From a virus, in IMG/VR virus record IMGVR_UViG_3300028840_004475, positions 83,748 to 147,747 of that record: a DNA stretch of 64,000 bases. One strand, 5' to 3'. The translations under genes were made by a program, and so were the position numbers. This document shows positions 29,393 to 51,711 of this stretch, piece after piece. Each line of letters opens with the position of its first letter. The stretch's first letter is position 1. The notes beneath the pieces are model-generated. The model was not told the origin of the DNA. It did no database searches and saw only the letters and a program-made list of their open reading frames with translations.

Positions 29393-31126
29393 ATGCAGAC
29401 CTTCACCGAGGCAACGCGCTGGCGGAAGCCGACCAAGCGCAAGGGCAACGGCCGCAACTACGCCCAGCAGCGCCAGGTCATCCCAGGCAAGAGCCGGCTC
29501 ATGACTTCGACCTCGAGCGGCACCAAGGCCTTCAAGGTGGACGACTGGGGTCGCCTCGCCCGCTTCCTGATCCTGGGAGCAGACAAGCCGACCTTCTACG
29601 CGACGAAGCGCCAGCTGGTGCGGGACAACGCGAGGGTGGTCGAGCGCTGCATCAAGGAAGACGGTATCCGTACCGTGGACCTGATCGCGGAAGTGTCGAT
29701 TCAGGGCTCGGCGCCGAACAACGACCCGGCCCTGTTTGCGCTGGCAATGTGCGCGACCCTGGGTGGCCTCCACACCCGCCAGTACGCCCTCGGGCGCCTG
29801 TCGGACGTGGCGCGGATCGGAACGCACCTGTTCCACTTCGTGGCCTACTGCGAGGGTCTCGGTCACGGCTGGGGCCGGAACATGCGACGTGCGATCCGTG
29901 GGTGGTACAACGAGAAGGCGCCGGACAAGCTGGCGTATCAGATCCTGAAGTACAAGCAGCGTGACGGCTGGTCGCACAAGGATCTGCTCGCTCTGGCTCA
30001 CCCGCGCACTTCGAACAAGGAACGTGATGCCATCTACCGGTACATCGTGGCCGGCATCGATGGTCTGGGCAAGCGTACTGTCCTGAAGCACAACGGCCGC
30101 CGGAAGGTCCGCAAGACCTACCCGGACGTGTCACGTCACCTGCCGGCGCAGATCTTCGCCGCGCACGACGTGCACAAGGTCAGCAAGCGGAAGGCCAAGC
30201 AGCTCATCGAAGAGCACCGCATGACCCATGAGATGGTGCCGAACGAGCTGAAGAACGACCCAGAGGTCTGGGAGATCATGCTCGAGACGATGCCCATCGG
30301 AGCGATGGTGCGGAACCTCGGCAAGATGACCAGCATCGGCCTCCTGGACCGGATGTCCAGGGCCTCGAAGCTGGTGATCGACCGGCTGGGCGACATGGAG
30401 CGGATCCGTCGGGCGCGTCTGCACCCGATCGAGTTCCTCAAGGCCAACCGTGTCTACGGTGCCGGCCGCGGGGACAAGGGATCGCTGTGCTGGGATCCGG
30501 TGCGCGGGATCGTCCGAGCACTGGACGACGGGTTCTACCTGGCCTTCGGCGCGATCGAGCCGAGCGGCGTGAACACTGGTCTGTTCATCGACGTCTCTGG
30601 TTCGATGGCATGGGACACCTCACGCGTGAAGTCGATGGCGAACATGACCGCACGTGAGCTGTCAGGTGCCATGGCCCTGGTGACGGCGAACGTGGAGCCG
30701 TACTGGGAGATCATCGCCTTCTCCGGCGGCTACGACTCGCTCGAGGAGATCCCGATCGAGCCCGGCATGAAGCTGGACACGGTCGTGAACAGGATGGAGC
30801 GTATGCGAGCCGGCAGCACGAACCTGTCGCTACCGTTCGAGTACGCACGTGGACGCGGTGTCCCGATCGAGACGTTTATCGTCTACACAGACAACGAGAC
30901 GAATCACTTCGGCTCGCTGCATCCGTCGGAGGCACTGCGCAGGTACCGGAAAGAGACCGGCATCGACGCGAAGCTGATCGTGGTCGGCATGGTGGCGAAC
31001 GACATCTCGATCGCTGACCCGACCGATCACGGCATGTTGGATGTAGTTGGGTTCGACACGAACGCTCCGTCAGTGATGGCGGACTTCGCGAAGGGCGCCT
31101 ACGAGATCGACGTCGAGCAGGGCTGA
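29393..31126 (+). CDS. rsr: Ro60/Rsr RNA-binding protein (TROVE + vWA)
   Basis: DDW.RL.RFLILG, ARIGTHLFHF, KYKQRDGWSHKDLL.LAHP, MP.GAM.RNLGKMT, HP, DVSGSM MIDAS motif, YTDNET, IADP.D.GMLDVVGFD. Confidence 0.96.
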   Translation: MQTFTEATRWRKPTKRKGNGRNYAQQRQVIPGKSRLMTSTSSGTKAFKVDDWGRLARFLILGADKPTFYATKRQLVRDNARVVERCIKEDGIRTVDLIAEVSIQGSAPNNDPALFALAMCATLGGLHTRQYALGRLSDVARIGTHLFHFVAYCEGLGHGWGRNMRRAIRGWYNEKAPDKLAYQILKYKQRDGWSHKDLLALAHPRTSNKERDAIYRYIVAGIDGLGKRTVLKHNGRRKVRKTYPDVSRHLPAQIFAAHDVHKVSKRKAKQLIEEHRMTHEMVPNELKNDPEVWEIMLETMPIGAMVRNLGKMTSIGLLDRMSRASKLVIDRLGDMERIRRARLHPIEFLKANRVYGAGRGDKGSLCWDPVRGIVRALDDGFYLAFGAIEPSGVNTGLFIDVSGSMAWDTSRVKSMANMTARELSGAMALVTANVEPYWEIIAFSGGYDSLEEIPIEPGMKLDTVVNRMERMRAGSTNLSLPFEYARGRGVPIETFIVYTDNETNHFGSLHPSEALRRYRKETGIDAKLIVVGMVANDISIADPTDHGMLDVVGFDTNAPSVMADFAKGAYEIDVEQG

Positions 31127-31135
31127 CACGAGTTT

Positions 31136-31196
31136 GAGGGCCGGACGGCTTGGGTTATCTTGCAACGATACCCCCCAGGCCAAACACTTTGCCCTC
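31136..31196 (+). ncRNA. Y RNA 1 (short; apical loop TTGCAAC)
   Basis: GAGGGC-C-GGA...TTT-GCCCTC bulged-C Ro-binding stem, 9 nt after the Ro60 stop. Confidence 0.8.
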
Positions 31197-31205
31197 TTCA
31201 AGTTT

Positions 31206-31324
31206 GGCTGACGTAGCGATGTGGAAGGACACATGAGAGACGGCAGTAGCCCAAGGCTAGGTGTGTGCCGCCCCGTTTAGAGGAATCCTTGGGGAGCTGG
31301 TATCAAGGCCAGTCTGCGTCAGTC
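31206..31324 (+). ncRNA. Structured RNA, partly tRNA-like, without the Ro stem
   Basis: GGCTGACGTAG pairs with CTGCGTCAGTC; internal hairpins; same AGTTT leader as the Y RNA units. Confidence 0.55.
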
Positions 31325-31341
31325 GTTCTATGGAAGGATTT

Positions 31342-31452
31342 GTGGGCCGAATGGATTGCAGGGTTATCGATGGTTCGAATCCACCTGGCGGGTCTAAACC
31401 ACCCGCTATCGCCTAGCTGGTTAAGGCACCCCTGTACCAACAACTTGCCCAC
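31342..31452 (+). ncRNA. Y RNA 2, YrlA-type (T arm - closed acceptor - D arm)
   Basis: GTGGGCCGA...TTGCCCAC; GGTTCGAATCC, TGGCGGG/CCCGCTA, GCCTAGCTGGTTAAGGC. Confidence 0.88.
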
Positions 31453-31469
31453 TTTGAATTATGGGAGTT

Positions 31470-31597
31470 GCGGGCCGTAGACTGAACGTTATCTAAGCGC
31501 GCAATTTTGCGCTTATAGCTCAGTTGGTAGAGCGCCGGGGGTAGCCTCGGAGGTCGAGGGTTCGAATCCCTAACGACGTTCTTTCAGCTTTGTCCGC
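31470..31597 (+). ncRNA. Y RNA 3 (closed acceptor - D - anticodon-arm mimic - T)
   Basis: GCGGGCCGTA...TTTGTCCGC; TAAGCGC/GCGCTTA, TAGCTCAGTTGGTAGAGC, GGGTTCGAATCCC. Confidence 0.82.
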
Positions 31598-31619
31598 GCC
31601 CTACCTATTAGAGGAGTTT

Positions 31620-31682
31620 GAGGGCCGGAAGTCTTGGGTTATCACTTCGGATGATGCTTCCCAGGACACTAACTTTGCCCTC
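31620..31682 (+). ncRNA. Y RNA 4 (short; apical TATCA-CTTCGGA-TGATG)
   Basis: GAGGGCCGGA...TTTGCCCTC. Confidence 0.8.
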
Positions 31683-31701
31683 GTTTCTATACACTGAGTT
31701 T

Positions 31702-31768
31702 GTGGGCCGGAGGCAACGGGTTACCTTTCATTTGGAGAAAACACACCCATCGCCAACAACTTGCCCAC
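31702..31768 (+). ncRNA. Y RNA 5 (short; apical TTTC-ATTTGGA-GAAA)
   Basis: GTGGGCCGGA...CTTGCCCAC. Confidence 0.8.
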
Positions 31769-31787
31769 TTCGTTTTGAGAGGAGTTT

Positions 31788-31918
31788 GCGGGCCGTACGA
31801 AATAGGTTACCAATGCAAACTGTAGGTCGCGGGTTCGAGTCCCGTCATCGGCACCATGCCGATGTAGATCAGCTGGTAGATCAACAGTGGTTACACGCCT
31901 ACTTCACTTTTTGCCCGC
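31788..31918 (+). ncRNA. Y RNA 6 (tRNA permuted at the anticodon loop; acceptor closed by ACCAT)
   Basis: GCGGGCCGTA...TTTGCCCGC; ACTGT-AGGTC-T arm-CATCGGC ACCAT GCCGATG-D arm-ACAGT. Confidence 0.87.
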
Positions 31919-31940
31919 GTTTCAAAGGACACTATGGTTT

Positions 31941-32072
31941 GAGGGCCGGACGCACGTTGGGTTATCCACTCATAATGGAGAGGTCGCAGGTTCGAATCCT
32001 GTCGTGGCTTTAGCGAGTCACGTAGCTCAGTTGGTCAGAGCGCTAAACCCCCAATGTCAACTATTTGCCCTC
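31941..32072 (+). ncRNA. Y RNA 7 (anticodon arm CAT - T - closed acceptor - D)
   Basis: GAGGGCCGGA...TTTGCCCTC; TCCA-CTCATAA-TGGA, GCAGGTTCGAATCCTGT, CGTGGCT/AGTCACG, D arm. Confidence 0.87.
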
Positions 32073-32089
32073 GTTTTGAAGTAGAAGAG

Positions 32090-32380
32090 ATGAACACGAG
32101 AGAGACACGCATGTTGACAGAAGCAATCAGAGCAAACACGCGCGCCCTCCTCGAGAACACGAAGCTCTTGAAACGCTTCACGTCGAAGCAGGACCGCAAG
32201 AGCGATCTCGATGAGAGACGCAACCGACTACTGGCGAACATCCCGTACCTGAAGTCAGAGCTGAAGCAGTTCCGGCGTCAGGAGCTGGTGATGCTCGCTG
32301 CAGCCCTGGGGGTCAGGAACACATCAGTACCGAACACACGCCTCGTGGAAGTGATCTTCAGAGAACAGAAGCGAGCGTGA
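32090..32380 (+). CDS. Hypothetical protein with possible Rho_N/HeH-like C-terminus
   Basis: ELK...RQELVMLAAALGV.N.S......LVE.I. Confidence 0.5.
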   Translation: MNTRETRMLTEAIRANTRALLENTKLLKRFTSKQDRKSDLDERRNRLLANIPYLKSELKQFRRQELVMLAAALGVRNTSVPNTRLVEVIFREQKRA

Positions 32381-32577
32381 AGAAGCTGTACATCTGGTTC
32401 TGCGACAAGTGCAACTCGTTCGTACCAGCGACGTGTTGTCTGGCAACGAGCAAGAAGGCAGCATGGGACGGCGGTCAAGAACACCTGGTGAAGACGCACG
32501 ACTTGACTCACCACGCTACCGACATGGAGTTGTTCAAGGGCCGCGTCGTCATCTTGGAAGAGAAGACGAAAAAATAG
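32377..32577 (+). CDS. Small zinc-finger protein
   Basis: CDKC...H...H. Confidence 0.5.
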   Translation: MKKLYIWFCDKCNSFVPATCCLATSKKAAWDGGQEHLVKTHDLTHHATDMELFKGRVVILEEKTKK

Positions 32578-32578
32578 C

Positions 32579-32608
32579 TTGACAGATCGATAACCGATGC
32601 ATCACGAT
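32579..32608 (+). promoter_or_regulatory. sigma70-like promoter, tRNA operon 1
   Basis: TTGACA-N18-CACGAT. Confidence 0.65.
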
Positions 32609-32630
32609 GAAAACTTCGTCGGAGGATGCT

Positions 32631-32744
32631 ATGCACCGCGCAATTCAGATCACCACCATTCCCATCAAGCGCGACGGACGATTGTCCTTCCTCTGTTCCC
32701 TTTCGTCCCTATTTCTCTATTCCAATTCCGGCTGGCGACTGTAG
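32631..32744 (+). CDS. Leader peptide 1: MHRAIQITTIPIKRDGRLSFLCSLSSLFLYSNSGWRL
   Basis: GGAGG SD; 18 of the last 20 residues are L/S/F/C/Y/N/W, the amino acids of operon 1; stop is 12 nt before the first tRNA. Confidence 0.8.
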   Translation: MHRAIQITTIPIKRDGRLSFLCSLSSLFLYSNSGWRL

Positions 32745-32756
32745 ACGCATCTTTGC

Positions 32757-32840
32757 GGATCGGTAGCTGAGCTGGTTTAGCAGCGGGCTGTTAACCCGTG
32801 CCCTCGGGCTACGTGGGTTCGAGTCCCACCCGATCCGCCA
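32757..32840 (+). tRNA. tRNA-Asn(GTT), long variable arm
   Basis: Cloverleaf, loop CTGTTAA, CCA end. Confidence 0.85.
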
Positions 32841-32843
32841 TGT

Positions 32844-32912
32844 GGGCGCCAGGCTATGGCAGCCAAGCGGGCTCCAACCCCGCAGGACAGGGTTCGATTC
32901 CTTGGGCGCTCG
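32844..32912 (+). tRNA. tRNA-Trp(CCA)
   Basis: Loop CTCCAAC; CCA end not encoded. Confidence 0.8.
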
Positions 32913-32927
32913 TAGAAAGAAAAATGT

Positions 32928-33003
32928 GGACTCGTCGCTGAGTTGGTTCAGGCGCCTGGTTGAAGCCCAGGAGACGTTGGTTCGATTCCAACCGAGTCCA
33001 CCA
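32928..33003 (+). tRNA. tRNA-Phe(GAA)
   Basis: Loop TTGAAGC, CCA end. Confidence 0.9.
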
Positions 33004-33006
33004 AAC

Positions 33007-33082
33007 GCGGGCATAGCCCAACTGGTAGGAGGCGACGGTTTTAAGGTCCGTTCAGTGGTGGGTTCGAATCCCCCTGCCCGTA
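33007..33082 (+). tRNA. tRNA-Leu(TAA), short variable region
   Basis: Loop TTTAAGG. Confidence 0.8.
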
Positions 33083-33151
33083 TTCAAGGAAACGAACGAA
33101 AACTGAAATAAGGAGGTCGCCTCGAGCCCATGTTTCAAAAGATCAGCACAT

Positions 33152-33234
33152 GTCAGAGTGGCGGAATTGGTAGACGCGCAGGCCCGAGGAGCCTGTACTT
33201 CGGTGTGAGGGTTCGACTCCCTCCTCTGACACCA
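33152..33234 (+). tRNA. tRNA-Leu(GAG)
   Basis: Loop CCGAGGA, CCA end. Confidence 0.9.
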
Positions 33235-33237
33235 TGT

Positions 33238-33328
33238 GTAGCGGTGGCTGAGCGGTTGAAAGCACCAGACTGTAGATCTGGAGATCCGAAAGGGTCCAAC
33301 GGTGGTTCGAATCCATCCCGCTACACCA
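33238..33328 (+). tRNA. tRNA-Tyr(GTA)
   Basis: Loop CTGTAGA, long variable arm, CCA end. Confidence 0.9.
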
Positions 33329-33331
33329 TAT

Positions 33332-33407
33332 GCCCGTCTACCCCAATCTGGTACGAGGGGCTCGGCTCAGACCCGAGATGTTCCCGGTTCGAATCCGGGG
33401 GCGGGCA
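33332..33407 (+). tRNA. tRNA-Leu(CAG), short variable region
   Basis: Loop CTCAGAC. Confidence 0.85.
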
Positions 33408-33512
33408 AAATGAAAAGCCCCTGGCCACAGTGACCAGGGGCACCCTCGCTCCTCGGGGGAAGGACAACGAAGGTGAGCTGATCGTAGCAGGAGGCGAACA
33501 TAGTTCAAGTGT

Positions 33513-33595
33513 GCCGGGGTGGCGGAATTGGAATACGCGCTGGCCTCAAGCACCAGTGCTTCGGCATGAGGGTTCGACTCCCTCTCCCGGCACCA
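33513..33595 (+). tRNA. tRNA-Leu(CAA)
   Basis: Loop CTCAAGC, CCA end. Confidence 0.9.
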
Positions 33596-33596
33596 T

Positions 33597-33688
33597 GGAA
33601 GGTTGGCCGATGTTGGGATGGCGCCTGCTTGGAAAGCAGAGACCGGCCCGAGAGGGTCGCAGAGGTTCGATTCCTCTACCTTCCGCCA
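33597..33688 (+). tRNA. tRNA-Ser(GGA)
   Basis: Loop TTGGAAA, long variable arm, CCA end. Confidence 0.88.
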
Positions 33689-33689
33689 T

Positions 33690-33764
33690 GGGCAGTGGGT
33701 CTGTCGGGATGGATGCTGGATTGCAACCCCAGAGAAACTGGTTCGACTCCAGTACTGCCCTCCA
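33690..33764 (+). tRNA. tRNA-Cys(GCA)
   Basis: Loop TTGCAAC, U73, CCA end. Confidence 0.85.
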
Positions 33765-33795
33765 AAAAAAGAGGGGCCCTCGAGGGCCCCTCTTT
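33765..33795. terminator. Bidirectional intrinsic terminator
   Basis: A-tract-GAGGGGCCC-TCGA-GGGCCCCTC-TTT between convergent units. Confidence 0.8.
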
Positions 33796-33813
33796 AGCAG
33801 TCACCTCAGTTGA

Positions 33814-34338
33814 CTAGGCGGCTTCGAGCAGCACGAAGTAGATGTCGCCGCGGAACTCGACCCAGTCGCCGACGGAACCGGCCGTGTACGAGACGCTGAC
33901 GGCGGTTCCGTTGCACACGTGTCCCTCAGGAACCAGCACGCCACCACCGCTCTCGTCGACTGCCAGGAGTGCGCCGAGGGTCTGACCAGTGTTCAGGAGA
34001 GTCGGCTTCTGGATGCCGACGGCGCTGCAGTCGATGCCGACACCGAAGCCATCAGCGTCACCACCAACCTCGGTGGAGAGCAGACCAATGTCCATGGTCT
34101 TGGTGGCACCGGTGACCTCGGCGGCCGTCACGTCCACGTAGTATCCAAGGACGACACTCTTCAGCGGAAGGTCGACGCCGCTGTCCTGCTCGGTTCCATC
34201 GGGAGCCGCAGTGATCGGAACCCGGAGGGTCTTCGTGACTGCACCGCTCGCACTGAGATCACATTGTTCGTTGATCTCTGTGGCGGTGGCAGTGATCGAC
34301 TCCATCCACCTCTTGATAGGACGAACGATAAACCACAT
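33814..34338 (-). CDS. Virion-like beta-rich protein (possible capsid decoration)
   Basis: GAGGAGG SD before ATG at 34338; ITATATEIN motif; GC3 bias like the structural genes. Confidence 0.65.
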   Translation of the reverse strand: MWFIVRPIKRWMESITATATEINEQCDLSASGAVTKTLRVPITAAPDGTEQDSGVDLPLKSVVLGYYVDVTAAEVTGATKTMDIGLLSTEVGGDADGFGVGIDCSAVGIQKPTLLNTGQTLGALLAVDESGGGVLVPEGHVCNGTAVSVSYTAGSVGDWVEFRGDIYFVLLEAA

Positions 34339-34488
34339 ATTCAGCCTCCTCGTACCTAGCCAGGGCACGGTCTCCCACTGAACCATTCAATGGGGTTACA
34401 CCCTCGTTGGGGATTGGCTGTGCATATACTGCTACACATTGGCATTTATGTGCAACACAACTTTCTGGGAGATCAACCGAGAATTATC

Positions 34489-34518
34489 TTGACTGATCGA
34501 ATAGCGATCTCTTACGGT
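34489..34518 (+). promoter_or_regulatory. sigma70-like promoter, tRNA operon 2
   Basis: TTGACT-N18-TACGGT; spacer begins GATCGA as in the operon 1 promoter. Confidence 0.6.
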
Positions 34519-34527
34519 GAAGATCTC

Positions 34528-34650
34528 ATGTTGTACTCGTTGACCAGGAAAGCCAGACCATCCGTCGCCACAGCAGTGGCGAAGCGGACGGGCATGTGCC
34601 TGGTTATCGAGGGACAGACCCGCCATTTTCGAGATCCCAGCGCGGCGTAA
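34528..34650 (+). CDS. Leader peptide 2: MLYSLTRKARPSVATAVAKRTGMCLVIEGQTRHFRDPSAA
   Basis: ATG 9 nt after the -10 box (near-leaderless); has a codon readable by each of the 20 tRNAs in operon 2. Confidence 0.75.
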   Translation: MLYSLTRKARPSVATAVAKRTGMCLVIEGQTRHFRDPSAA

Positions 34651-34743
34651 ACTGTCCTTCAGCACTGGGAACCCGAAATCGGACAGACTCGAAAGTAACC
34701 AGGCTGGACGACAGCTGCGTCGCATCTGCTGATGCACGCCTGT

Positions 34744-34821
34744 GGGGGTGTGGCCTAGTCTGGTCTAGGGCGCCTGACTGTCGATCAGGAGACTTCGCCG
34801 GTTCGAATCCGGTCGCCCCCG
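34744..34821 (+). tRNA. tRNA-Asp(GTC)
   Basis: Loop CTGTCGA. Confidence 0.88.
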
Positions 34822-34832
34822 CTCTTTTTTGT

Positions 34833-34910
34833 GCGTCCGTAGCTGAATTGGATCAGCGCAGGTCTACGAAGCCTGGTCGTATGAGAGTTCGAGTCTCTCC
34901 GGGCGCGCCA
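34833..34910 (+). tRNA. tRNA-Arg(ACG)
   Basis: Loop CTACGAA, CCA end. Confidence 0.9.
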
Positions 34911-34923
34911 GGAGACGAAGTGT

Positions 34924-34999
34924 TGCGGTGTAGCTCAGCTGGTAGAGCGTCTGACTCTGGATCAGAAGGTCGTCGGTTCGAGACCGGCCGCCGCTGCCA
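34924..34999 (+). tRNA. tRNA-Gln(CTG)
   Basis: Loop CTCTGGA, CCA end. Confidence 0.9.
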
Positions 35000-35007
35000 T
35001 GTTTTGA

Positions 35008-35085
35008 TGCGACGTAGAGCAGTCTGGTTAGCTCAGGTGGCTCATAACCACCAGGTCGTGGGTTCAAATCCCACCGTCGCTACCA
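35008..35085 (+). tRNA. tRNA-Met(CAT), initiator-like
   Basis: Loop CTCATAA, 1:72 mismatch, GAGC/GCTC D stem. Confidence 0.88.
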
Positions 35086-35130
35086 CTTTTGAGGGCGGTG
35101 TGTCCTGGGCATTCCGCCCAGGAGACATTC

Positions 35131-35207
35131 GCTCCCGTAGCTCAGTTGGTCAGAGCGCTGGTCTGATAAACCAGAGATCGTTGGTTCAAGTCCAACCGGG
35201 AGTACCA
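35131..35207 (+). tRNA. tRNA-Ile(GAT)
   Basis: Loop CTGATAA, CCA end. Confidence 0.92.
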
Positions 35208-35211
35208 TTTT

Positions 35212-35287
35212 GCCGGGGTAGTTCAGTTGGTAGAACGCCGGTGTCACATACCGGAGGTCGCTGGTTCGAACCCAGCTCCCGGTACCA
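35212..35287 (+). tRNA. tRNA-Val(CAC)
   Basis: Loop GTCACAT, CCA end. Confidence 0.9.
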
Positions 35288-35300
35288 GATAGGTGGTTGA

Positions 35301-35374
35301 CCCCGTGTCGTCTAACTGGAAGGACGCCAGGTTTCCAACCTGGAGGTCTCGGTTCGGTTCCGAGTACGGGGTCC
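35301..35374 (+). tRNA. tRNA-Gly(TCC)
   Basis: Loop TTTCCAA, U73, CCA end. Confidence 0.88.
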
Positions 35375-35413
35375 AATTCTTGGGGTTGAAAGGGTAAGTA
35401 GAGATGAACAACT

Positions 35414-35485
35414 GGATCCGTAGCTCAGCGGTTGAGCAGCTCCCTCATAAGGAGAAGGGCGTTGGTTCAAATCCAACCGGGTCCA
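35414..35485 (+). tRNA. tRNA-Met or Ile2 (CAT)
   Basis: Loop CTCATAA. Confidence 0.85.
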
Positions 35486-35516
35486 TCAGACGAAGGCGGC
35501 GGCGGTAGCAATATGT

Positions 35517-35593
35517 GCCCACGTAGCCTAATTGGAGAGGCAACTGATTTCTACTCAGTTAATATGCGGGTTCGAGTCCTGCCGTGGGCGCCA
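35517..35593 (+). tRNA. tRNA-Arg(TCT)
   Basis: Loop TTTCTAC, CCA end. Confidence 0.9.
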
Positions 35594-35596
35594 TGT

Positions 35597-35668
35597 GCGC
35601 TCGTAGCCTAGCGGAGAGGCACTGGCCTCCGAAGCCAGACCACGTAGGTTCGAATCCTGCCGAGCGCG
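35597..35668 (+). tRNA. tRNA-Arg(CCG)
   Basis: Loop CTCCGAA. Confidence 0.88.
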
Positions 35669-35725
35669 CAAAGGAGGTTGACATCGCGAACCATCTCGTT
35701 TAATTTCAAATGAGGAGGTCCGCAA

Positions 35726-36334
35726 ATGGCCAAGAAAGAAGAACGCAAACAAGCTAGAACTATGCGCAGGGGTGGAAAGTCGATAGTACAAATTGCGAAA
35801 TTACTTGGTGTATCAAAATCAAGTGTATATTTATGGACAAAGGATTTACCTCAACCAAGAAAATTCACGAAAGAATATCGACGTAAACGAAAAGAAAAAG
35901 CTCTAGCACGTTTGAAGAAAGAAAGAGAGAAACGAGAGAAAGAAAAAGCGAATCGCAAACTATTGAGTTGCGGAGATAGATGGATCATACGAGTGCCACC
36001 TGGGTACAAAGGCAAAACATATATCGGAGGAAGATACGTTCTTCAAAGTAGATATTTGATGGAACAAAAACTTGGAAGATACCTAAAATATAACGAGTGT
36101 GTTCACCATAAAAACGGGGATAAACTGGACGATAGAATTGAGAATTTGGAATTACATACTAGGAAATTACATGGAGAGATACATGCAATTAGAAAAAGGA
36201 CTAAACTCAAATGTCCAATATGTGATGTAGAATTTGAACGCAAAAACAGTTATGTGAAAAGTCACATAAAACAAGGATACAAAGGTTTTTATTGTAGCAA
36301 AAGGTGTGCGGCCAAGAAACAAAAGGGAGTATAG
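35726..36334 (+). mobile_element. Free-standing HNH homing endonuclease
   Basis: N-terminal HTH, VHHKNGDKLDDRIENL, C-terminal Zn finger; markedly AT-rich; own TTGACA-N17-TAATTT promoter at 35678. Confidence 0.88.
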
Positions 36335-36401
36335 CTCAGCTGTTAGCAGCATTCGGCTTTTAACCGAAAGGTCGTGGGTTGGAACCCCACTGCTCCCACC
36401 A
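36325..36401 (+). tRNA. tRNA-Lys(TTT)
   Basis: Loop CTTTTAA; atypical D and T loops; CCA end. Confidence 0.85.
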
Positions 36402-36402
36402 T

Positions 36403-36479
36403 GGGTTCGTAGCTCAAGTAGGCAGAGCATCCGGTTCTTACCCGGAAGGTTGGGGGATCGTGGCCCTCCGAGCCCACCA
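36403..36479 (+). tRNA. tRNA-Lys(CTT)
   Basis: Loop TTCTTAC; T loop ATCGTGG; CCA end. Confidence 0.85.
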
Positions 36480-36645
36480 AAGGAAAGACGATGTGCCCGA
36501 AGCGAGACGAAGACATGGAATTCATGAGGCGTTCACTCGAGCGCCCGTGCGAACCATTTTTCTGGCCGAAGGATCCGGATGACCAACCGGCCTACGGCTA
36601 CGAGGAAGAGGACAGGATCGAATACGATCCACCACAAAGGAGAAA

Positions 36646-36996
36646 GTGATGTTGGTCGAGGTAGGCACAGTGAAGTACGTCGTGAACTGGAAGCACGAGC
36701 GTGAGTTCGACAGGTACGCGCTCGTCCAGGACGCACAAGTGTCCGGCGATGCAAAGTTGCTACGAGCGCTGGAGCTGTCCACAGGGCGTACCATCTGTCG
36801 CATCGAGAAGCTTGGTGGTACGTCAGAGGTCGAAGCAACGGTGTACTGCTCGAAGAAGGACATCTTCGAGAAGGACGAGGGTCGGAAGAGATCCCTCAAG
36901 AGGGCACTCGCGTTGCGTGGCTTCATGAAGCAGGAGAGAACGCTCTTCTGGGACGAGTACCACAACCGGAAGCCTCAGACGGCAGAGGCTGCGTAG
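36646..36996 (+). CDS. Hypothetical phage protein
   Basis: CS.KD.FEK..GR..SL.RAL motif common in phage proteins. Confidence 0.6.
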   Translation: MMLVEVGTVKYVVNWKHEREFDRYALVQDAQVSGDAKLLRALELSTGRTICRIEKLGGTSEVEATVYCSKKDIFEKDEGRKRSLKRALALRGFMKQERTLFWDEYHNRKPQTAEAA

Positions 36997-37008
36997 GAGT
37001 GAGCACGA

Positions 37009-37084
37009 CCGCGTATAGTTCAGTTGGTAGAATGCAACCTTGCCAAGGTTGATGTCGTGGGTTCGAACCCCACTACGCGGTCCA
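37009..37084 (+). tRNA. tRNA-Gly(GCC)
   Basis: Loop TTGCCAA, CCA end. Confidence 0.9.
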
Positions 37085-37091
37085 ATTTCGT

Positions 37092-37166
37092 GCCCGAATA
37101 GTTCAGTGGTAGAACGCTTGCTCGACACGCAAGAGGTCGTTGGTTCGATACCAACTTCGGGCACCA
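37092..37166 (+). tRNA. tRNA-Val(GAC)
   Basis: Loop TCGACAC, CCA end. Confidence 0.9.
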
Positions 37167-37226
37167 GGCCGGCTGTGGCCAAACCATTACGGTGGTTCCG
37201 GGAGCACCCGGGCAGCCGGCCCCCAT

Positions 37227-37302
37227 GCTGGGGTAGTTCAGATGGTGGAACGCGTCCTTGGTAAGGACGAGGTCGCGGGTTCGAGCCCCGCCCCTAGCTC
37301 CA
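37227..37302 (+). tRNA. tRNA-Thr(GGT)
   Basis: Loop TTGGTAA, CCA end. Confidence 0.92.
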
Positions 37303-37304
37303 AC

Positions 37305-37380
37305 GCTGGCGTAGTTCAGGAGGTAGAACAGGTCACTCGTAATGATCAGGTCGCTGGTTCAATTCCAGCCGTCAGCTCCA
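37305..37380 (+). tRNA. tRNA-Thr(CGT)
   Basis: Loop CTCGTAA, CCA end. Confidence 0.92.
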
Positions 37381-37381
37381 T

Positions 37382-37457
37382 GCTGGGTTAGCTCAGTTGG
37401 TAGAGCAGCTGATTTGTAATCAGCAGGTCGCAGGTTCGAGCCCTGTCCCCAGCTCCA
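37382..37457 (+). tRNA. tRNA-Thr(TGT)
   Basis: Loop TTTGTAA, CCA end. Confidence 0.92.
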
Positions 37458-37561
37458 GGAAGAATGATGTTGGACAAAATAGACAAGTTCGTTCGTGACT
37501 ACCTGCTATTGCCGGCGACATTCGTGTACGCGGCACTGCAGATTTGGAGGCTGTTTATTGT

Positions 37562-37638
37562 GGGGTCATAGCTCAGTTGGGAGTAGCGCCTGCCTTGCAA
37601 GCAGGAGGTCGTCGGTTCGATCCCGTCTGACTCCACCA
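37562..37638 (+). tRNA. tRNA-Ala(TGC)
   Basis: Loop CTTGCAA, G3:U70, CCA end. Confidence 0.92.
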
Positions 37639-37719
37639 GCCGACCCGCGGTGAAATGTCATTGGTGTGGCCCCGTGTCAATGACAGAAGGCAGCCTACGG
37701 GGCATTTGTAGGAGGTTCT

Positions 37720-37795
37720 GTTCCCGTCGTCTAGCGGTCTAGGATCTCGGCCTCTCACGCCGAGGACGCGGGTTCGAGTCCCGCCGGGAACACCA
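37720..37795 (+). tRNA. tRNA-Glu(CTC)
   Basis: Loop CTCTCAC, CCA end. Confidence 0.92.
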
Positions 37796-37871
37796 GGCCG
37801 AACCACAGGGCCGAGGCAATCGTTTGATGTGGTGACAGCCCGGAGAGACGGGCACTGTGGGCGTGTGCTGT

Positions 37872-37944
37872 GGCGTGTGTAGCTCAGTGGTAGAGCGTAC
37901 GGCTGTGGCCCGTACTGTCGCGGGTTCGATTCCCGTCATACGCC
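37872..37944 (+). tRNA. tRNA-His(GTG)
   Basis: Loop CTGTGGC, G-1:C73. Confidence 0.9.
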
Positions 37945-37955
37945 CACCTTTTTTG

Positions 37956-37983
37956 TTGACGACCTGCAAAAGATCTCGATAAT
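37956..37983 (+). promoter_or_regulatory. sigma70-like promoter, tRNA operon 3
   Basis: TTGACG-N16-GATAAT after a T-tract. Confidence 0.6.
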
Positions 37984-38003
37984 AGATCATGCAGGAGGAA
38001 GTT

Positions 38004-38120
38004 ATGTTCCGCTACACGATGGCAGCCATTTTCTTCATCGACCATTTCAACGCCGGTCATCTGCCGTCGCCATCCTCACCCTCGCCATCAGAACGACCCT
38101 CGAGTCCGCCGCAACGCTAA
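38004..38120 (+). CDS. Leader peptide 3: MFRYTMAAIFFIDHFNAGHLPSPSSPSPSERPSSPPQR
   Basis: AGGAGG SD; 16 of the last 18 residues are P/S/E/Q, matching the downstream tRNAs; stop is 8 nt before the first tRNA. Confidence 0.82.
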   Translation: MFRYTMAAIFFIDHFNAGHLPSPSSPSPSERPSSPPQR

Positions 38121-38128
38121 CACGCTTT

Positions 38129-38218
38129 GGTGCGATGGCCTAACTGGTAGGGAAGCGGTTTGCTAAACCGTCCGGGCGTTCACGCGTTCTGAAGGTTCGA
38201 GTCCTTCTCGCACCGCCA
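38129..38218 (+). tRNA. tRNA-Ser(GCT)
   Basis: Loop TTGCTAA, long variable arm, CCA end. Confidence 0.9.
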
Positions 38219-38221
38219 TAT

Positions 38222-38297
38222 CGGAGAGTGGGGTATACGGTAGCCCACCTGTTTCGGGGACAGGATGATGTCGGTTCGAGTCCGGCCTCTCCGACCA
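38222..38297 (+). tRNA. tRNA-Pro(CGG)
   Basis: Loop TTCGGGG, CCA end. Confidence 0.9.
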
Positions 38298-38375
38298 CGG
38301 GGTATAGCTCAGTTTGCGTAGAGCGTTTGGTTTGGGACCAAAAAGCCGGGGGTTCGAATCCCTCTACCCCGACCA
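38298..38375 (+). tRNA. tRNA-Pro(TGG)
   Basis: Loop TTTGGGA, CCA end. Confidence 0.9.
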
Positions 38376-38376
38376 T

Positions 38377-38469
38377 GGATGGACAAGCCGATGGTTGGCG
38401 ACGGCACCTGCCTCGAAAGCAGGCGAACCCGAAAGGGCCTTGGGGGTTCGATCCCCTCTCCATCCGCCA
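38377..38469 (+). tRNA. tRNA-Ser(CGA)
   Basis: Loop CTCGAAA, long variable arm, CCA end. Confidence 0.88.
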
Positions 38470-38472
38470 TTT

Positions 38473-38550
38473 GGGACGTGACTCTGTCAGACACGCAGGC
38501 AGAGGGGTAGAGAAGTCGTGCTCTCCCGGTTCGAGTCCGGCGCGTCCCCA
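38473..38550 (+). ncRNA. tRNA-like RNA (acceptor and T arm intact, D and anticodon arms replaced)
   Basis: GGGACGT/GCGTCCC, CCGGTTCGAGTCCGG, two non-canonical hairpins. Confidence 0.6.
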
Positions 38551-38551
38551 C

Positions 38552-38642
38552 GGAAGGCTGGCAGAATGGCTATTGCACCTGATTTGAAATCAGAGGTCGG
38601 CCTGAGAGGGTCGTGCGGGTTCGAGTCCTGCGCCTTCCGCCA
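38552..38642 (+). tRNA. tRNA-Ser(TGA)
   Basis: Loop TTTGAAA, long variable arm, CCA end. Confidence 0.9.
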
Positions 38643-38733
38643 ATTTTTAATGCAAAAATAGTCGCTGTACAACGTAGCTATTTATGATATCAAAAAAGAT
38701 CTGTACGCCAACACCAAACAAACGAGGAAACAG

Positions 38734-39009
38734 ATGACTGGCATCCAGATCGACGTCAACTACAAGACCAGAGGCCGCAACAAGGCCGCCACCTTCACTG
38801 CGGCATACCGCAACAGAGTCGTGCCGGCTGACGTCACTGTCCCAATCCGTAGGGGACGACCGACCTACACCCTGACGATTCCGACGCCGGTCAACATCGG
38901 CAATGGTGACACACTTTCGTTCACCATGAAGAATCTGGACGCCGCACTGGCTGCTCTAGCAGACTATGCGAAGAAGTGGCCGGCGCTCAACAAGGCCGGT
39001 ATGGCCTAG
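38734..39009 (+). CDS. Hypothetical protein
   Basis: GAGG SD, clean ORF. Confidence 0.55.
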   Translation: MTGIQIDVNYKTRGRNKAATFTAAYRNRVVPADVTVPIRRGRPTYTLTIPTPVNIGNGDTLSFTMKNLDAALAALADYAKKWPALNKAGMA

Positions 39010-39027
39010 AACAGAAGAGGAGATAAG

Positions 39028-39309
39028 ATGGCTGCGAAGGCAATGACGAAGACAGAGATCTGCAAGAAGCTGGCAGAAGCCAACGACATGAAACCGAAGG
39101 AGGCAAAGCTCTTCCTCGAATCGCTGGCACAGCTGGCCTACAAGGAGGCGAAGAACGGCTTCACCATCCCTGGCATCGGCAAGCTCGTCAAGCAGCGCCG
39201 TAAGGCGCGTGACGGTCGCAACCCGGCCACCGGTGAGAAGATCCGCATCAAGGCCAAGACCGTCCTGAAGTTCAGGGTCTCGAAGGTCGCGAAGGACGCG
39301 ATTCTGTAG
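39028..39309 (+). CDS. hup: HU family DNA-binding protein
   Basis: MTKTEI...IPGIGK...RKARDGRNPATGEKIRIKAK.V.KFR. Confidence 0.93.
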   Translation: MAAKAMTKTEICKKLAEANDMKPKEAKLFLESLAQLAYKEAKNGFTIPGIGKLVKQRRKARDGRNPATGEKIRIKAKTVLKFRVSKVAKDAIL

Positions 39310-39316
39310 CAATACA

Positions 39317-39390
39317 GCTCCTGTCGTTCAATGGTAGGACGCCGGGTTTTCAACCCGGTAACCGGGGATCAATACCCCGCAGGAGCACCA
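39317..39390 (+). tRNA. tRNA-Glu(TTC)
   Basis: Loop TTTTCAA, CCA end. Confidence 0.88.
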
Positions 39391-39415
39391 ACCTTGCCGC
39401 CTTCGGGCGGCTTTT

Positions 39416-39490
39416 GGGGGCATCGTCCAATGGCTAGGACATCGGCCTTTGGAGCCGGCGATGAGGGTTCGAGTCCCTCTGCCCCTTCCA
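39416..39490 (+). tRNA. tRNA-Gln(TTG)
   Basis: Loop CTTTGGA, CCA end. Confidence 0.9.
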
Positions 39491-39746
39491 CAGCACCGCG
39501 TCATGAGACAACTATATGTGTCTCGAGCGAATTCGGTATCAAACGAGGAATGTGGGTCAAGATCGATTATGACTGGTCACCGACCTTCAAGTTCCTCGGT
39601 CACGAATTCAAGTTCCAATGGCCAGTACAGTTTAAGCCATTCAGGTTCGCTCCGTACTTGCTAATCAGACGTATCAGCAAGTATCGTGGTCTCTTCCAAG
39701 TGGCTTCGGTGATAGACAGTACCACAGTCACTTTGTCGGAGTAATC

Positions 39747-40025
39747 ATGTCAGACACCTGGTACGTGCTTCAAAATCTTGAGCAACTCAACTTGGATGAC
39801 GTGAAGGAACCACCGTGCGGCAAGTGCTACTGGTGGGATCCTGCATTCGAGTATGGGGCGGATGGTCGGACTGGCGTTGCGTTCTGCAGAGCTGACGAGA
39901 TGGAATGCGACTTCAGCTGTTTCCGTCCTCGGAGGTCTCCAAAGGGTGTTCCTTCAGCAAGAGACGCGTCTGCTCGAGGAGCCGAGGGCGACTCTGACCA
40001 AAACCCTGAGCAACTGACAGATTGA
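39747..40025 (+). CDS. Hypothetical Cys-rich protein
   Basis: CGKC...FC...C..C; GGAG SD. Confidence 0.45.
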   Translation: MSDTWYVLQNLEQLNLDDVKEPPCGKCYWWDPAFEYGADGRTGVAFCRADEMECDFSCFRPRRSPKGVPSARDASARGAEGDSDQNPEQLTD

Positions 40026-50854: not shown

Positions 50855-50930
50855 CACCCGCGGTGGGACTCGAACCCACGACCTCCCAGGTCCATAGGCT
50901 GGGCACTCTACCGAACTGAGCTACGCGGGT
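50855..50930 (-). tRNA. tRNA-like element with 9-nt anticodon loop CCTATGGAC (copy A)
   Basis: ACCCGCG/CGCGGGT acceptor, canonical D arm, CCCAG/CTGGG, GTGGGTTCGAGTCCCAC. Confidence 0.8.
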
Positions 50931-51621: not shown

Positions 51622-51635
51622 ACTCTCTCCTGTTG

Positions 51636-51711
51636 CGCCCGCGGCGGGACTCGAACCCGCGACCTCCAAGGTCCATAGGCTTGGCACTCTACCTTGCTGA
51701 GCTACGCGGGC
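51636..51711 (-). tRNA. tRNA-like element with 9-nt anticodon loop CCTATGGAC (copy B)
   Basis: GCCCGCG/CGCGGGC, CCAAG/CTTGG, GCGGGTTCGAGTCCCGC. Confidence 0.8.

Follow-up and report, generated by a model that had tools for sequence, protein, structure and literature searches.

Short open reading frames 5′ of three viral tRNA gene blocks match the tRNAs of their own block: candidate translated sensors of tRNA supply

Introduction

The viral contig IMGVR_UViG_3300028840_004475 (IMG/VR) carries 37 tRNA genes in its final 64 kb, the stretch of 64,000 nucleotides (nt) that was analysed here and is referred to as the window; coordinates are those of the window unless stated otherwise. The genes lie on the plus strand between positions 32757 and 39490 and form three blocks of 10, 20 and 7 (ARAGORN calls, with which Rfam agrees). 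One open reading frame (ORF) of 37-40 codons stands 5′ of every block, and the codons of these three leaders (L1, L2 and L3) match the isoacceptors encoded in the block that each precedes. The match between leader and block is real, confirmed to lie well beyond chance. As judged from the sequence, the leaders are likely to be translated sensors coupled to tRNA expression.

The role of tRNA genes in phages has been debated for decades, with codon compensation set against escape from tRNA-cleaving defences (PMC10264068, PMC11555353). If the interpretation developed below is true, it would be the first described case of translational feedback control of tRNA genes and would add tRNA supply to amino-acid supply as a target of leader-peptide attenuation. 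The operon boundaries and the regulatory logic of phage tRNA genes would also become readable from sequence alone.

Leader ORFs and their start signals

An initial annotation of this DNA had proposed that a layout of promoter, short ORF and tRNA array occurs three times, with the ORFs starting at 32631, 34528 and 38004. All three ORFs were found at these starts and the layout stands; the promoters were borne out in part, as only that of L3 passes a consensus scan. L1 (32621-32744, plus strand) consists of a Shine-Dalgarno (SD) sequence, GGAGGA, at 32621-32626, an ATG at 32631 and 37 codons, with a TAG ending at 32744, and its 3′ half is C/U-rich and G-poor. L2 (34528-34650, plus strand) has 40 codons and no strong SD, and stops 93 nt 5′ of tRNA-Asp. 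L3 (37994-38120, plus strand) has the SD GGAGGA at 37994-37999, an ATG at 38004 and 38 codons, with a TAA ending at 38120. L1 and L3 share the start GGAGGA-N4-ATG. The more general motif GGAGG-N4-8-ATG occurs 52 times in the genome and opens an ORF of at least 60 codons in 41 of these cases, and is therefore the normal gene-start signal of this phage, borne by both L1 and L3. The SD-ATG segment of L1, GGAGGATGCYATG, is conserved in G001, a related viral genome described below.

Each leader follows a promoter-like site on the plus strand. P1 (32579-32608, TTGACA-N18-CACGAT, with a weak -10) and P2 (34489-34518, TTGACT-N18-TACGGT) both failed the consensus scan. Within the window, the P1 motif TTGACNGATCGA is common to P2 only; the two sites share TTGAC(A/T)GATCGA, with a weak -10 (CACGAT and TACGGT, respectively) 18 nt downstream. 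P3 (37956-37983) reads TTGACG-N16-GATAAT and scores 10/12. As P2 ends 9 nt 5′ of the ATG of L2, this leader may be nearly leaderless.

The distance from the stop codon to the mature 5′ end of the first tRNA is 12 nt for L1 (to tRNA-Asn), 8 nt for L3 (to tRNA-Ser) and 13 nt for the leader of G001. From the ATG to the first tRNA base there are 126 nt in L1 (32631/32757), 125 nt in L3 (38004/38129) and 127 nt in the G001 leader (reverse strand, 6387/6514); the figure for L2 is 216 nt. That this distance is near-constant despite the unrelated sequences of L1 and L3 hints at a spatial constraint.

Codon match between leaders and their own tRNA blocks

Block 1 (32757-33764, plus strand) encodes tRNAs Asn, Trp, Phe, Leu(taa), Leu(gag), Tyr, Leu(cag), Leu(caa), Ser(gga) and Cys. 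Block 2 (34744-37945, plus strand) encodes 20 tRNAs, beginning with Asp and ending with His, and block 3 (38129-39490, plus strand) comprises Ser(gct), Pro(cgg), Pro(tgg), Ser(cga) and Ser(tga), a 91-amino-acid (aa) ORF, an HU gene, Glu(ttc) and Gln(ttg). Under standard wobble rules (G34 reads C/U, C34 reads G, U34 reads A/G and A34 reads U/C/A), the claim that each leader carries codons read by its own downstream tRNAs holds at the isoacceptor level, with coverage of 10/10 for L1, 20/20 for L2 and 7/7 for L3. Two block-2 tRNAs bear the anticodon CAT (fMet, Met or Ile2), and coverage by L2 falls to 19/20 if one of them reads AUA.

A permutation test of own against other operon anticodons, as suggested in the initial annotation, was strongly positive. 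In its first form, the probability of attaining the observed own-codon count and coverage jointly was taken from all stop-free windows of equal length in the six frames of the genome, which gave P values of 5.4e-4 (L1), 6.6e-5 (L2) and 6.0e-3 (L3); all six mismatched pairs of leader and block gave P values of at least 0.19. Dinucleotide-preserving shuffles of each leader gave 1.5e-4 (L1), 3.0e-4 (L2) and 4.0e-3 (L3), with a Fisher-combined P of 4.9e-8, which becomes near 1e-6 when multiplied by three per leader for the choice of frame. The shuffle result removes the worry that pyrimidine-rich spacers merely mimic Leu, Ser, Phe and Pro codons. When the same DNA is read in its other two frames, 4 and 5 of 10 tRNAs are covered for L1, 13 and 13 of 20 for L2, and 5 and 6 of 7 for L3. 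Full coverage of block 2 is attained by L2 alone among the 1112 ATG ORFs of 25-60 codons in the genome.

The match extends to the choice among synonymous codons. L2 is an almost non-redundant catalogue, with ACC/ACA/ACG, AAA/AAG, AGA/CGG/CGC, GGC/GGA and GTC/GTG, and with GAG and CAG rather than GAA and CAA; block 2 encodes Glu-CTC and Gln-CTG. L3 has the rarer GAA and CAA, which make up only 33% and 24% of the Glu and Gln codons in the phage genes, and block 3 encodes Glu-TTC and Gln-TTG. Serine is written as TCC in five of its six occurrences in L1, block 1 having Ser-GGA as its only Ser tRNA, whereas six of the seven Ser codons of L3 are TCG, TCA or AGT and block 3 encodes Ser-CGA, Ser-TGA and Ser-GCT (Fisher P 0.025). 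Own codons also crowd toward the stop in both L1 (Mann-Whitney P 1.2e-4) and L3 (7e-5). The first 16 codons after the ATG of L1 include no block-1 codon, and 16 of its last 20 codons belong to its own block; L3 has no block-3 codon among the first 19 after the ATG, and 13 own-block codons (Pro, Ser, Glu(GAA) and Gln(CAA)) among the last 18.

As a post hoc observation, a single codon for the first tRNA of the block lies within the final six codons of each leader: AAT in L1 (32727-32744), GAT in L2 (34633-34650) and AGT in L3 (38103-38120). Likewise post hoc, the G001 leader ends in AAT TGG, the same order as its tRNAs Asn and Trp.

Recurrence in related and unrelated viruses

The closest relatives of the contig are uncultured IMG/VR contigs, with a large terminase (TerL) identity of about 52%. 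A TerL tblastn search against cultured phages returned nothing above 32% identity, and a megablast of the tRNA array against cultured phages matched single tRNAs only. One relative, G001, is a complete IMG/VR genome of 142,861 base pairs (bp) with direct terminal repeats and a TerL that is 52% identical. It has 27 tRNAs (ARAGORN), in an order that differs from that of the window, and retains GGAGGATGCYATG and a 37-codon ORF that ends 13 nt 5′ of tRNA-Asn and tRNA-Trp; the peptide is otherwise not conserved. Of the 18 tRNAs that follow it, the G001 leader covers 17 (P 1.6e-4 in the test with stop-free windows, 2e-4 in that with shuffles), including several that are not in block 1 of the window, namely Thr-TGT, Pro-TGG, Asp, Gln-TTG and all four Ser isoacceptors. 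It covers only one of the five upstream tRNAs (P 0.98) and has no Cys or Glu codon, tRNA-Cys and tRNA-Glu both lying upstream. Compared with the window, codons for Thr, Pro, Asp and Gln are new to this leader and Cys is absent, as expected from its tRNA order; since its codons track a different downstream set, the leader has co-varied with tRNA content.

Beyond this leader, the second tRNA cluster and the other blocks of G001 have no further matched leaders, and most of these blocks lie directly 3′ of ordinary protein genes. G001 also encodes, at 1279-2001 of the reverse-strand sequence, a 240-aa ORF that looks sigma-factor-like by eye and ends 7 nt 5′ of tRNA-Glu; this protein may direct promoter recognition specific to the phage at the array. 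Scans of IMG/VR and the JGI metagenomes for the SD-ATG and tRNA-Asn pattern returned only G001 and two contigs that are 100% identical to it in this region. Searches with the minus-strand 190-aa protein, the 116-aa ORF and the Ro60 homologue of the window as bait gave no hits or contigs lacking a comparable tRNA array.

The same design appears in Erythrobacter phage XM05, a cultured phage with an unrelated TerL that surfaced through one tRNA similar to a window tRNA; it infects Erythrobacter sp. JL475, and its three leaders lie at about 2250, 1200 and 151800 of record PV416404.1. Here, a 20-aa ORF (MTYGFTKRDRREGDERGFTS) lies 5′ of tRNAs Lys, Lys, Gly, Gly, Asp, Glu, Glu, Arg, Arg and Phe (P 5e-4), and a 34-aa ORF lies 5′ of Ser, three Leu, Thr, His, two Gln, Ser, Cys and Trp (P 4.7e-5), with 24 of the 33 residues after its initiator Met falling within the downstream amino-acid set. 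Mismatched pairs of leader and block in XM05 gave P values of at least 0.28. The expectation that leaders in other phage tRNA arrays would co-vary with tRNA content was therefore borne out in G001 and in two of three XM05 leaders, whose codons fit the tRNAs after them. Streptomyces phage Phredrick served as a negative control: its tRNAs are dispersed, and the annotated small ORFs 5′ of them are not enriched for cognate amino acids. The phages phiN3 and V1VFA-S have too few tRNAs to be informative. As two of its three leaders are built in this way, XM05 offers the best experimental handle, and the idea is directly testable.

RNA structure around the leaders

The RNAs of L1 and L3 are no more structured than their shuffles (z +0.2 and +1.1). 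The 3′ half is rich in C and poor in G in L1 (33% and 16%) and in L3 (46% and 18%), a composition of the Rho type, which L2 (28% C, 31% G) does not have. L2 RNA is structured (z -2.9), and a long hairpin of 85 nt (34641-34725, plus strand; z -3.4) spans the region between L2 and tRNA-Asp, its 5′ arm overlapping the L2 stop; it has no U-tract. The L2 region also gives alternative folds, with no defined terminator there to compete with. A single minimum-free-energy fold of L3 together with tRNA-Ser predicts many leader-tRNA pairs and was not relied on. There is no T-box match in 31000-40000, where a permissive Rfam scan gave tRNAs, YrlA-like RNAs and weak noise only. In XM05, a terminator-like hairpin with a U-run stands 3′ of two leaders out of three, and at the third leader the hairpin starts directly after the stop codon.

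A proposed mechanism and its alternatives

The frame-specific match makes sense only if the ORFs are translated, and the match to adjacent tRNAs makes sense only if this translation is linked to tRNA expression. That the leaders are translated we infer from the SD-ATG signals and from the statistics on reading frame; we likewise infer that translation is coupled to transcription, the sign of this coupling and the part played by Rho. On balance we lean towards a model in which each leader would act as a decoding test that places its tRNA block under negative feedback. The leader would be a short translated ORF in the 5′ part of the tRNA-block transcript, with approximately one codon for each downstream isoacceptor. 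If a tRNA were scarce in the infected cell, its codon would be decoded slowly and the ribosome would pause in the sensor part of the leader, upon which RNA polymerase would continue into the tRNA genes. If all codons were decoded fast, the ribosome would leave and transcription would be cut short, so that each tRNA block would be titrated by its own product.

How transcription would be cut short may differ between leaders. In L1 and L3, the sensor half is a stretch of ~60 nt, C-rich, G-poor and predicted to be unstructured, that ends 8-12 nt before the first tRNA. Our best guess from the composition and folding analyses is that Rho would load here unless a paused ribosome covered the site, in the manner of tnaC and mgtL. 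A structure-based switch seems more likely for L2, which needs many codons starting with G and has a large hairpin over its stop.

It is possible, though we hold this a little less firmly, that some large phages possess self-titrating arrays in which every block is gated by a codon-catalogue leader and transcribed only while a codon of its own is decoded slowly. Were this true, a phage could fit its tRNA supply to any host that it enters and refill isoacceptors destroyed by tRNA-targeting defences. Leader content would then predict operon extent, and in the window the HNH endonuclease gene, the 116-aa ORF, the 91-aa ORF and the HU gene would fall under the same control. A link to the anticodon nucleases PrrC, VapC and PARIS, raised in the initial annotation, is speculation; nothing in the sequence ties the leaders to nucleases, and plain homeostasis, or tuning to the host tRNA pool, would explain the design equally well.

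Several observations weigh against the feedback model. A terminator scan found no plus-strand terminator-like site between leader and first tRNA at any of the three leaders, and folding gave no convincing terminator/antiterminator pair there in the window. Attenuation of the classical trp/his type is therefore not demonstrated, there being no intrinsic terminator or clear antiterminator in these intervals. The C-rich, G-poor makeup of L1 and L3 is perhaps forced by the codons that they need (UCN, CCN, CUN and UUY), which makes it weak evidence for a Rho site. L2 is without a good SD, and its translation would need a putative near-leaderless start. Each tRNA is usually sampled by one or two codons, whereas classical attenuators need runs of regulatory codons for their sensitivity. 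The extents of the blocks are assumed, with an HNH gene in block 2 that has its own promoter and a terminator-like hairpin before the last tRNA of block 3. The third XM05 ORF, 5′ of tRNAs Pro, Pro, Ile, Asn and Ala, is not significant (P 0.06-0.1), though it contains the run NNPAPAI. Finally, as the copies of G001 are 100% identical, they provide no population variation, and only one independent close relative was found.

Chance or composition might be thought to account for the match, with pyrimidine-rich spacers read as Leu, Ser, Phe and Pro in a frame chosen post hoc. The sensor halves of L1 and L3 are indeed compositionally biased, all three frames are open 5′ of block 1, and frames and starts were chosen in the initial annotation. 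However, the dinucleotide shuffles and the two other frames fail to reproduce the match, the combined P stays near 1e-6 after the correction for frame choice, and L2 is the strongest case yet has no compositional bias. Rare single codons (AAT, TGG, TAT and TGT; GAA and CAA) also stand exactly where they are needed, and the pattern recurs in G001 and XM05. We consider an artefact of this kind very improbable, and the window, shuffle and 1112-ORF tests bring it close to being refuted. It is improbable, if less so, that the ORFs encode functional small peptides with no regulatory tie, for example a membrane peptide with the hydrophobic tail of L1, and that the match arose through local co-expression or codon-usage adaptation. 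That tail (LSFLCSLSSLFLYS) resembles a transmembrane helix and small ORFs are common in phage tRNA regions, but L1 is hydrophobic, L2 mixed and basic, L3 rich in Pro and Ser and the second XM05 leader charged, so that no peptide property is common to the leaders, whose shared trait is that each matches its own tRNAs. Between the window and G001, moreover, it is the length, the SD-ATG and the tRNA match that are conserved and not the peptide sequence, and general codon adaptation cannot yield specificity for the own over the other blocks.

A further alternative retains the sensor and changes its output: the leader could act on how RNase P or RNase E processes the first tRNA or on precursor stability, or the sign could be opposite, with fast translation permitting expression. 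The stops of L1, L3 and the G001 leader lie 12, 8 and 13 nt before the mature tRNA, where a terminating ribosome would abut the RNase P site, although ordinary ORFs in these arrays also end 5-13 nt before tRNAs and the short spacing may reflect plain compaction. The near-constant distance from ATG to tRNA (126, 125 and 127 nt), the lack of terminators between leaders and tRNAs in the window, and the hairpin that begins right after the stop of the third XM05 leader, a poor fit to classical logic, all speak for a different output. An effect on the first tRNA alone would, however, not account for a leader that lists all 10-20 tRNAs of its block. We regard this alternative as rather unlikely, while giving it more weight than the other two, and retain negative feedback on transcription as the preferred model.

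Genomic context of the tRNA blocks

The source of the window is a single virus contig of 147,747 bp with 56.5% GC, whose genes include those for a large terminase, a portal and a major head protein. One and the same tandem repeat of 19 bp is found at both contig ends (at the window end, 64000, and at the genome start), which suggests that the assembly is circularly closed through the repeat array. The DNA sequencing runs that contain the contig are sediment and seawater metagenomes, and none of the runs listed for the window is recorded as RNA.

Block 1 ends at a palindromic GC-rich hairpin (33765-33796) with an A-run and T's on its flanks. This hairpin probably terminates block 1, and also ends the minus-strand gene at 33814-34386. 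Within the block, the 104-nt spacer between Leu(cag) and Leu(caa) (33409-33512) contains a strong hairpin (GCCCCTGGCCACAGTGACCAGGGGC) that scores as an intrinsic terminator on the minus strand only.

Block 2 is interrupted by an HNH endonuclease gene (35726-36334) and by the 116-aa ORF (36646-36996), and it ends with a T-run after tRNA-His that abuts the next promoter. The HNH homing-endonuclease insert (35670-36334, plus strand) is equipped with a TTGACA-N17-TAATTT promoter and an SD of its own, and at its 3′ end it extends over the start of tRNA-Lys. A 104-nt spacer 5′ of tRNA-Ala holds a hydrophobic ORF of 35 aa (MMLDKIDKFVRDYLLLPATFVYAALQIWRLFIVGS; 37464-37571, plus strand) whose codons bear no match to the downstream tRNAs (Ala, Glu and His); not every small ORF of the array is therefore a matched leader. 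In block 3, a terminator-like hairpin (GCCGCC-TTCG-GGCGGC-TTTT; 39391-39415, also placed at 39396-39415, plus strand) lies between the final two tRNAs, Glu(ttc) and Gln(ttg). Expression of Gln(ttg) may depend on read-through past it, despite the CAA codon in L3.

Directly upstream of the tRNA arrays lies a Ro/Y-RNA module (29393-32074, plus strand), with a Ro60 homologue (TROVE, E 2.5e-41; Ro60 vWA, E 2.4e-50). After this gene there are sub-threshold matches to the Y RNA-like YrlA (31806-31897 and 31943-32074) and a weak tRNA-like match (31509-31578). The tRNA region of Streptomyces phage Phredrick also has a Ro-like gene. Distant from the arrays, ARAGORN calls two minus-strand tRNA-His genes with the unusual anticodon ATG (50855-50930 and 51635-51711), ~780 nt apart, which may be tRNA-like elements or false calls.

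Comparison with known systems

Leader-peptide attenuators of amino-acid operons include trpL, hisL, pheL, thrL, ilvL and leuL, and the pheM leader precedes the pheST synthetase operon. Like the leaders of the window, they are short ORFs between promoter and genes, enriched in codons tied to what the operon supplies. In the ilv and thr leaders, too, codons for several amino acids are combined, and pheM applies the same principle to a gene of the translation apparatus. They differ in that the product in the window is the tRNA itself. Furthermore, classical attenuators have runs of one codon, whereas the leaders described here are near non-redundant catalogues of up to 20 isoacceptors in which the choice of synonymous codon follows the isoacceptors. 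The window also lacks the terminator/antiterminator pair of the classical systems; among the arrays compared here, hairpins with U-runs were found after leaders in XM05.

In the Rho-dependent leader switches (tnaC-tnaAB, mgtL-mgtA, mgtP-mgtCBR and toiL-topAI), the position of the ribosome decides whether Rho loads on C-rich unstructured RNA (PMC12360218). L1 and L3 resemble them in ending in such RNA, and differ in that the downstream genes are untranslated tRNAs and the putative loading site is inside the coding part. The long tRNA array (trn operon) of Anabaena sp. PCC 7120 is induced by translational stress (PMC8421152) via the repressor TrcR (PMC10272220). It is alike in providing extra tRNAs on demand under impaired translation and in having homing endonuclease genes within the array; control there is by a protein repressor, and neither PMC8421152 nor PMC10272220 mentions a leader peptide or attenuation. 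T-box riboswitches, too, regulate translation-apparatus genes according to the state of a specific tRNA, which they sense, but bind uncharged tRNA directly without translation.

Leader-peptide control of tRNA genes did not come up in full-text searches of the literature, in agreement with the initial annotation, which was aware of no description of multi-codon leader control in phage tRNA arrays. The closest known systems are the multivalent ilv and thr attenuators and pheM, joined in the case of L1 and L3 by the Rho-dependent leader switches tnaC and mgtL. The system described here shares with ribosome-mediated leader control the principle of its sensor, and differs from it in its target, the tRNA genes, and in its codon design.

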